The notes under the pieces were generated by a model, which was given only the letters and a program-made list of their open reading frames with translations, was not told the DNA's origin and ran no database searches. A program made the position numbers and the translations under genes. This document shows positions 14,074 through 14,874 of a DNA stretch of 18,020 nt, one piece after another (positions within the stretch are counted from its first letter, which is position 1; each line of letters opens with the position of its first letter). This stretch comes from a virus. Lineage: Duplodnaviria; Heunggongvirae; Uroviricota; Caudoviricetes. The stretch lies in the IMG/VR virus record IMGVR_UViG_2657245664_000010. One strand, written 5' to 3'.

Positions 14074-14265
14074 ATGCACAAAGCATCTCCTGTTGAGTTA
14101 AGAACGAGCATTGAGATGGCACATAGCCTCGCTCAAATTGGAGTCAGGTTTGTGCCAATACCAGTAGAAACAGACGAAGAATTTCATACGTTAGCCGCAT
14201 CCCTTTCACAAAAGCTGGAAATGATGGTGGCGAAAGCAGAAGCAGATGAGAGAGACCAGGTATGA
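14074..14265 (+). CDS. Small phage protein, lambda orf63-like (DUF1382-type)
   Basis: 63-aa ORF with a GGGGAG ribosome-binding site. Same length as lambda orf63 and at the equivalent position upstream of xis-int. The identity is from memory only. Confidence 0.5.
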   Translation: MHKASPVELRTSIEMAHSLAQIGVRFVPIPVETDEEFHTLAASLSQKLEMMVAKAEADERDQV

Positions 14266-14345
14266 CAACCACTGAATGCATTTTTCTGGCAGCGGGCTTC
14301 ATATTCTGTGTGCTTATGCTTGCCGACATGGGACTTGTTCAATGA
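14262..14345 (+). CDS. 27-aa hydrophobic peptide, translationally coupled (below the ORF-track cutoff)
   Basis: MTTTECIFLAAGFIFCVLMLADMGLVQ. ATG overlaps the upstream stop (ATGA) and its stop overlaps the next ATG (ATGA). Confidence 0.3.
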   Translation: MTTTECIFLAAGFIFCVLMLADMGLVQ

Positions 14346-14557
14346 CACATCAGCAAGAAAACGCCCTTCGCAGTATTGCCCGTCAGGCTAATTCTGAAAT
14401 CAAAAAAGCCAGACAGCAGTTTCCGGATAAAAACGTCGATGACATTTGCCGTAGCGTACTAAAGAAGCACCGCGAAACGGTAACGCTGATGGGATTCACA
14501 CCGACTCATTTAAGCCTGGCGATCGGCATGTTGAACGGCGTCTTTAAGGAACGATGA
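14342..14557 (+). CDS. Hypothetical small phage protein
   Basis: MTHQQENALRSIARQANSEIKKARQQFPDKNVDDICRSVLKKHRETVTLMGFTPTHLSLAIGMLNGVFKER. Coupled to the preceding small ORF. The ORF track starts at 14276. Confidence 0.5.
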   Translation: MTHQQENALRSIARQANSEIKKARQQFPDKNVDDICRSVLKKHRETVTLMGFTPTHLSLAIGMLNGVFKER

Positions 14558-14655
14558 ACATGAAAAGCAAAATCATCAGGGAGCTACAGGCTCCTTTTTT
14601 ATTATTCGCATTTACCCTCAAGCGTATTAACCAACAATTCAGGGATTAATGAAAG

Positions 14656-14874
14656 ATGGCAGACATCATTGATTCAGCATCAGAAATCGAAGAATTACAG
14701 CGCAATACAGCAATAAAAATGCGTCGTCTGAACTACCAGACTGTATCCGCAACTCATTGTTGTGAGTGTGGCGATCCGATAGATGAGCGAAGACGCCTAG
14801 CTGTTCAGGGTTGTCGGACTTGTGCAAGTTGCCAGGAGGAGATCGAACTTAAGAACAAACAATGGGGACTGTGA
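14656..14874 (+). CDS. TraR/DksA-family C4 zinc-finger protein
   Basis: CCECGDPIDERRRLAVQGCRTCASCQ carries the CxxC...CxxC spacing typical of phage TraR-like proteins. 72 aa. Confidence 0.7.
   Translation: MADIIDSASEIEELQRNTAIKMRRLNYQTVSATHCCECGDPIDERRRLAVQGCRTCASCQEEIELKNKQWGL

Follow-up and report, generated by a model that had tools for sequence, protein, structure and literature searches.

Positions 14074-14874 of an 18,020-nucleotide (nt) stretch of phage DNA (IMG/VR record IMGVR_UViG_2657245664_000010; hereafter the window) were analyzed following a preliminary description, made from the sequence alone, which had proposed a chain of stop-start coupled open reading frames (ORFs) with two unlisted micro-ORFs of 27 and 31 amino acids (aa) in this segment. 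Judged from its sequence, the segment is the conserved core of an exo-xis region of the lambda type, which makes up the distal portion of the early pL operon, with the gene order orf63, 27-aa ORF, orf61 (71 aa), 29/31-aa ORF and orf73 from head to tail. The 27-aa ORF is probably a genuine gene of the lambda family that has been overlooked and encodes a small membrane protein. The explanation that best accounts for the whole segment, in which an exo-xis core contains a 27-codon coding gene translated in linkage with its neighbors and specifying a membrane helix, followed by a 29- or 31-codon ORF that serves as a spacer, is considered moderately likely. The setting is ordinary and well known and the 31-aa ORF is already on record; by the comparisons made here the 27-aa ORF would be the new part.

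The coding potential of the 27-aa ORF was assessed in related loci that were gathered via orf61 alone and never via a micro-ORF, using an Orf61 protein query on species genomes and IMG/VR as well as exact orf61 DNA words in IMG/VR and metagenomes. The first test set comprised 74 haplotypes and the second 269 loci with 124 haplotypes; alleles seen in at least six loci were regarded as common. Among the first 74 haplotypes, the 27-aa frame showed 10 synonymous and 4 non-synonymous changes (pN/pS 0.12), compared with 2 and 12 (1.69) for the orf61 frame on the same DNA. In the 269 loci, the ratio of synonymous to non-synonymous alleles in the 27-aa frame was 14:15, with an expected synonymous fraction of 0.27 (P = 0.012), and reached 6:1 for common alleles. 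The corresponding values for the same DNA were 8:21 and 0:7 in the long orf61 frame and 6:23 and 1:6 in the third frame, and the orf61 core, included as a control, gave 26:27 and 13:4. Third codon positions of the 27-aa frame hold 15 of the 29 alleles. Despite 34 DNA versions, 239 of 275 loci (87%) encode the identical peptide, and a 100% match to it is present in 138 of 176 phage records. The most divergent copy, from E. coli 31B19CPO010B, carries five synonymous and two non-synonymous changes. The ORF thus shows purifying selection in its own frame.

Structured RNA as the reason for conservation of 14262-14345 was considered and rejected, since the sequence from 14240 to 14380 folds worse than shuffled sequence (z = +2.4) and has no Rfam match. 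The possibility that the 27-aa frame and the long orf61 frame both code was rejected because the latter behaves neutrally. Three seemingly divergent orf61 relatives proved to be artefacts: one stems from an error-ridden assembly (P0070), one has an unrelated, transposase-like 5' part (P0035) and one carries a deletion (P0019). A tblastn search of phages and plasmids with the 27-aa peptide retrieved the same module only.

For the 31-aa ORF, the preliminary description was not borne out in several respects. It had been called unlisted, but a 29-aa coding sequence (CDS) is annotated at this place in phages 4A7, Turner, 1H12 and SfI, and lambda ribosome profiling yielded a 31-aa peptide in the block according to a review that cites Liu et al. 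2013 for it ('orf2313'; PMC8614690). Lambda 'orf2313' agrees with this ORF in length and belongs to the same conserved block, and the lambda ORF sequence is nearly identical, the identity of the two being deduced from length and place only. Nor is it a hydrophobic membrane peptide, the grand average of hydropathy (GRAVY) of the 31-aa product being -0.18. Furthermore, the ratio of synonymous to non-synonymous changes among common alleles is 4:6, and the alleles as a whole fall evenly on the three codon positions (7/8/9), which gives no clear indication of constraint on the peptide. A comparison with 1.8 billion representative proteins returned close copies only and no distant relatives. The ATG at 14554 is a GTG in about half of 275 related loci, whereas the ATG at 14560 and an AAGGA motif 9 nt upstream of it are invariant in the 74 tabulated haplotypes. 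A 29-aa product starting at 14560 is therefore likelier than the 31-aa form.

A terminator scan and both the minimum free energy (MFE) and centroid folds placed a hairpin (14578-14596) with a following U-tract within codons 9-18 of this ORF. The same hairpin sequence is listed as the predicted terminator t2 (PMC4195576). Weak peptide constraint and the position across t2 are what the present data add to the published 'orf2313'. On this basis the best reading of the 31-aa ORF is that of a translated spacer lying across a terminator, with a peptide that would matter little. The main alternative, that the frame is open by accident within a non-coding spacer whose real content is t2 and perhaps the predicted promoter p1, is a serious, if tentative, possibility. 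Besides the 4:6 ratio of common alleles, the even spread of alleles over codon positions, the variable first ATG and the lack of a wider family, it is consistent with the observation that the hairpin and U-tract (14580-14603) are the only stretch free of common polymorphism, that the hydrophobic FLLFAF core of the peptide is simply the translated U-tract, and that an open frame of 31 codons arises by chance with a frequency of about 0.2. However, the profiling result credited to lambda and the invariant ATG and AAGGA argue for translation, the frame is open in 273 of 275 loci and stays open with a new C-terminus in Escherichia sp. E1V33, and it scores above the +1 frame. A sense promoter p1 was predicted in the literature in the same AT-rich stretch as the t2 U-tract. 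The sole sigma-70-like site between 13500 and 15500 lies on the minus strand (14601-14630), antisense within the 31-aa ORF and beside the U-tract.

If the spacer ORF is translated, a ribosome on its 29 or 31 codons would hinder formation of the t2 hairpin, and translation would end 6 nt before the start of orf73. This resembles leader-peptide attenuators, in which a short ORF likewise lies over an intrinsic terminator and translation and termination could interact. In contrast to these, the 31-aa ORF has no run of regulatory codons and is located between two genes of an N-antiterminated operon, and no anti-terminator pairing was found, as the MFE and centroid folds of 14540-14670 contain only the terminator and a small upstream hairpin.

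The ORFs of 63, 27, 71 and 31 aa are joined by ATGA sequences on the plus strand at 14262-14265, 14342-14345 and 14554-14557, in which the TGA closes one ORF and the ATG opens the next. Reading of the sequence and the ORF list, which had a threshold of at least 20 aa, agree on these three overlaps and on both micro-ORFs, and the tight stop-start linkage described earlier holds at all three sites. As to conservation in relatives, which had been proposed as a check, the ATGA at both ends of the 27-aa ORF is invariant in the 74 haplotypes, and the ATG at 14554 is a GTG in about half of the loci. A second tiled chain with three ATGA overlaps is present on the minus strand (13041-13738) and comprises partial ninB, dam, ninE and ninX, which indicates that chains of this kind are a normal feature of genuine phage operons.

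Ribosomes that finish orf63 would restart at the overlapping ATG of the 27-codon gene, and those that finish the latter would restart at the overlapping orf61 ATG. The amounts in which the products of orf63, the 27-aa ORF and orf61 are made would then be linked, with synthesis shortly after pL fires. Such a handover raises the question whether the 27-codon ORF is a mere relay of ribosomes from orf63 to orf61 with a functionless peptide. The invariant ATGA at both ends, with the downstream TGA lost in only one of 275 loci, the weak Shine-Dalgarno sequence of the ORF itself and its constant association with orf61, including loci in which a Dam gene replaces orf63, fit this idea. A relay, however, needs nothing but an open frame of fixed phase, and yet amino acid changes are selected against, as reflected in the 6:1 ratio and the 87% identity of the peptide. 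A hydrophobic helix would be unnecessary as well. A pure relay is therefore regarded as improbable, and a functional peptide is preferred.

The coding reading also bears on the start of orf61. The 71-aa form from the ATG at 14342 is the form supported by the present comparison, and the listed 93-aa ORF, which begins in the same frame at ATG 14276, overlaps the 27-aa ORF. It could be argued that the latter is no gene and that 14276-14341 encodes the N-terminal 22 residues of the 93-aa Orf61 known from Phi24B, Shiga toxin (Stx) phages and PHROG 303. The long form is used by many GenBank records and by PHROG 303, and in E1V33 the TGA of the upstream gene overlaps the ATG that opens the long frame. 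However, the long frame shows the neutral expectation for all alleles and no synonymous common allele, variation is concentrated on its first codon positions, and the ATG at 14276 lacks a Shine-Dalgarno sequence. Moreover, many haplotypes lack the in-frame stop at 14273-14275, so that the N-terminus would differ among phages. The Prokaryotic Genome Annotation Pipeline (PGAP) calls the 71-aa start on E. coli SCU-118, and published models put the fold in residues 24-93 (PMC8614690). A 93-aa Orf61 in place of the 27-aa gene is thus very unlikely, and the Phi24B protein of this length would take in 22 residues of a neutrally behaving frame.

Lambda itself (locus L026) has seven A's in a run that corresponds to window positions 14402-14407, compared with six in the window and about 250 other loci. 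The seven-A state occurs in 17-19 loci, which look like lambda itself. Because of the extra A, the reference orf61 of lambda is frameshifted, and the 61-aa product annotated for it is pieced together from three frames. It begins at an upstream ATG that is open only since the TGA at 14273-14275 is a GGA in lambda, crosses the 27-aa region out of frame, enters the first 22 codons of the real orf61 and leaves that frame at the extra A. The truncated look of lambda Orf61 has already been noted (PMC8614690). Many 71-aa copies of Orf61 carry the NCBI name 'cell division protein ZapA'. With E = 0.028 and 15.2 bits, against a cut-off of 23.8, the match to the Pfam ZapA family falls short of the threshold, and the name therefore looks unsafe.

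Published orf61 mutants are affected by these assignments. The primer for the 'orf61 frameshift' (PMC4195576, Table 1) matches 14297-14329 of the window and deletes base 14313, which is located in codon 18 of the 27-aa ORF and upstream of the orf61 ATG at 14342. Phage development after induction was delayed in this mutant (PMC4195576). In the delta-orf61 phages the whole annotated ORF was replaced (PMC6213356), and thus the small gene was removed, too. The frameshift allele of lambda and the deletion alleles all hit the 27-aa ORF, and orf61 of lambda was already broken. At least part of the lambda and Phi24B 'orf61' phenotypes, that is the pro-lytic effect, the delay in development that follows induction and perhaps a share of the old 'bin' effect, a block of host replication, might thus be caused by the 27-aa peptide and not by Orf61, although this is considered rather unlikely. 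The peptide may act together with Orf63, to which its translation would be coupled and whose dimer has a cleft reported to fit a short helix (PMC10869804).

The peptide had been described as strongly hydrophobic, and this is confirmed by a GRAVY of 1.62 and a mean of 2.3 in the best 19-residue Kyte-Doolittle window (residues 7-25). A polar MTTTE head precedes hydrophobic residues 6-26, and one Asp lies near the C-terminus. With fewer than 50 aa and a hydrophobic stretch of about 19 residues or more, the ORF has the features used to define small single-pass proteins, and its predicted product fits a single membrane helix. The same size class and a single hydrophobic helix of membrane length are found in the E. 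coli inner-membrane proteins YohP (27 aa) and DinQ, according to the respective reports (PMC7549839, PMC3567139). The likeness is one of size and helix, and in contrast to both, the 27-aa ORF is phage-borne and part of a stop-start operon without a promoter of its own. Its helix would be expected to insert into the inner membrane, and the likeliest class for the product would be a small modulator or perturber of host membrane function in early lytic development. Small membrane toxins have a similar size and hydrophobic helix, but a stand-alone toxic peptide or a toxin of a type I toxin-antitoxin-like system is very unlikely here, as a consensus scan, which may miss a small RNA, found no promoter-like site antisense to 14262-14345 (the only minus-strand site being 14630-14601), no small RNA match was obtained in Rfam, the ORF lies in an operon with coupled starts and not behind its own promoter, and some 60% of complete E. 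coli genomes carry it, apparently without harm, at as many as five places per genome. Roughly 4400 E. coli copies of the stretch were counted.

Further support for a gene at this position comes from loci with another upstream neighbor. In 33 of 319 loci (about 10%), including E. coli B derivatives, orf63 is replaced by a gene for a Dam-type N6-adenine methyltransferase (L138, 12000-12557; L351, 536-904), which is complete in an IMG/VR prophage locus. The ATG of the 27-aa ORF is where homology to the window starts in these loci, and it is overlapped by the TGA of the Dam gene. Joints in phage mosaics are mostly found at gene borders. Thus, the 27-aa ORF behaves as a gene that moves as one unit with orf61. 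The Dam replacement is neatly bounded by the end of orf60a on one side and the start of the 27-aa ORF on the other. Two other apparent upstream contexts (H57 and H44) were discarded, as they contain only a mis-named orf63.

The 27-aa ORF has no entry in the lambda annotation (NC_001416) or in the PGAP annotation of SCU-118, in line with the earlier expectation that such ORFs are missed, and the RefSeq rows over it belong to its two neighboring genes only. Neither micro-ORF matches a Pfam, PHROG or NCBIfam family. A few GenBank genomes and UniRef list the exact 27-aa peptide under the name 'hypothetical protein', and a full-text literature search for both micro-ORF peptide sequences gave no match. 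The exo-xis papers examined, from 2014 to 2024, name five proteins and the 7-aa and 31-aa profiling ORFs, and make no mention of the 27-aa ORF.

Several observations weigh against a small membrane-protein gene at this position. The family is narrow, with all copies at least 90% identical, the selection test is based on 29 alleles, and rare non-synonymous alleles of the 27-aa ORF are not scarce. The profiling review gives only the 7-aa and 31-aa ORFs as extra ORFs of the block (PMC8614690). In E1V33 (L004) the 27-aa ORF is missing, and its ATG, or one nearby, is fused to the orf61 frame. The delayed development of the frameshift mutant could equally reflect polarity on orf61 or an effect on the annotated lambda orf61 frame. 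In addition, the ATGA chain alone is only mildly unusual: with a 20-aa cut-off, 20 single ATGA links were observed versus 16.5 ± 4.2 per 18 kb in random sequence, and a strictly tiled chain with at least three links was obtained in 25 of 1000 first-order Markov simulations. The weight is therefore carried by the comparative data. Coupling, membrane insertion and function are inferred from sequence.

A conserved gene at this place would be of interest because lambda is the most closely studied phage and the exo-xis block is present in most E. coli genomes and in Shiga toxin phages, in which it affects the choice between lysis and lysogeny as well as the induction of prophages. Should the 27-aa ORF be a real gene, the block specifies one product beyond the five proteins listed in the exo-xis papers examined, and the N-terminus of the 93-aa form used in structural modeling of Orf61 is probably incorrect. 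The orf61 mutants in the literature, both frameshift and deletion, would then be double mutants, or in lambda perhaps affected in the small gene alone. Little is new about the 31-aa ORF except for its position over terminator t2.

The assignment of the segment to the exo-xis region is based on several lines of comparison. Its nucleotide identity with lambda is 95.8% over 813 nt, and megablast matched 182 phage records at 90-99% identity, among them lambda-like and Stx phages; for the block, identity was 95-100% to 174 phage records. Lambda NC_001416 has orf60a, orf63 and orf61 annotated at the homologous place, and the order also agrees with phage 4A7. As in the exo-xis block studied by the groups of Wegrzyn and Donaldson (PMC4195576, PMC6213356, PMC8614690), orf60a, orf63, orf61 and orf73 follow each other on one strand, with xis and int downstream. 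Gene order, domains and the two predicted terminators, t1 as well as t2, are common to lambda and the window. The window differs from lambda in a DUF4222 gene followed by P22-type xis and int genes, where lambda has ea22 and ea8.5, and in an intact orf61, which is frameshifted in lambda; on the other hand, it is the prophage of the window that is degraded.

The window is 100% identical to E. coli SCU-118, the PGAP annotation of which was used for gene calls, and most late genes of this prophage are pseudogenes in that annotation. A deletion joint is located at 13947-13955, where a partial ninB on the minus strand ends at 13947 and a partial orf60a on the plus strand begins at 13955, with 7 nt between them. 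Everything from exo through P is deleted, which takes away pL, N and the genes for immunity and replication, cI, O and P included. Transcription from pL, which characterizes an exo-xis block, is accordingly not available to the copy in the window; this concerns the present copy alone and not the family. Since pL has been lost and the ninB remnant adjoins the orf60a remnant at about 13950, expression of the window copy is doubtful and the block in the window is regarded as a relic. Among the twelve best E. coli genome matches listed, only SCU-118 and CPE35 span the joint, and the others begin at about 13940-13945. The start that PGAP assigned to the orf60a remnant is an ATC codon (Table 1).

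Table 1. Features in and around the exo-xis core, in window coordinates.
Feature	Coordinates	Strand	Remarks
orf60a remnant (DUF1317)	13955..14101	+	Cut at the ninB joint; overlaps the orf63 start by 28 nt; PGAP CDS in SCU-118
orf63 (DUF1382, 63 aa)	14074..14265	+	Pfam PF07131, E = 3e-31; PHROG 292; lambda orf63 at the homologous place
27-aa ORF MTTTECIFLAAGFIFCVLMLADMGLVQ	14262..14345	+	ATGA overlap at each end; predicted single hydrophobic helix
Supposed N-terminal extension of orf61 (93-aa form)	14276..14341	+	Coding status unsupported
orf61 homologue, 71-aa form, intact	14342..14557	+	PHROG 303, E = 1e-35; purifying selection; lambda alignment
31-aa ORF (likelier 29 aa from ATG 14560)	14554..14649	+	Putative spacer ORF in the orf61-orf73 interval
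Terminator-like hairpin AGGGAGCU-ACA-GGCUCCUU, then UUUUAUUAUU	14578..14605	+	Predicted t2 of lambda and Phi24B; inside the 31-aa ORF
7-aa ORF MKDGRHH	14649..14672	+	ATG overlapping with the TAA stop of the 31-aa ORF; also overlaps the start of orf73; read from the sequence
orf73, TraR/DksA-type C4 zinc-finger protein, 72 aa	14656..14874	+	Pfam PF01258, E = 2.8e-9; PHROG 54

Orf73, encoded downstream of the spacer, is in lambda a homologue of TraR, and its binding to RNA polymerase has been shown (PMC9239242). A DUF4222 domain was found by Pfam further downstream of orf73. The start of this gene is most likely at 14922, and the chain of overlaps therefore stops at orf73. A 7-aa ORF in the exo-xis block is mentioned without coordinates in the review of lambda ribosome profiling (PMC8614690). 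As a guess, MKDGRHH might be this ORF, the 7-aa 'orf2311' of the profiling study.

Two further observations concern the distribution of the block. In E1V33 it is preceded by a 355-aa gene with a DGQHR domain (L004, 371-1438), orf73 is missing, and a 210-aa gene (2069-2701) begins 255 nt past the 31-aa ORF; these flanking genes may represent inserted defense-type cargo. Lambda-matching contigs (L007-L020), several of about 48.4-48.5 kb and others shorter, were encountered in assemblies of Shewanella, Pseudomonas, Paenibacillus, Kitasatospora, Oceanobacillus and other organisms, and almost certainly represent contamination of assemblies from unrelated taxa with lambda DNA.

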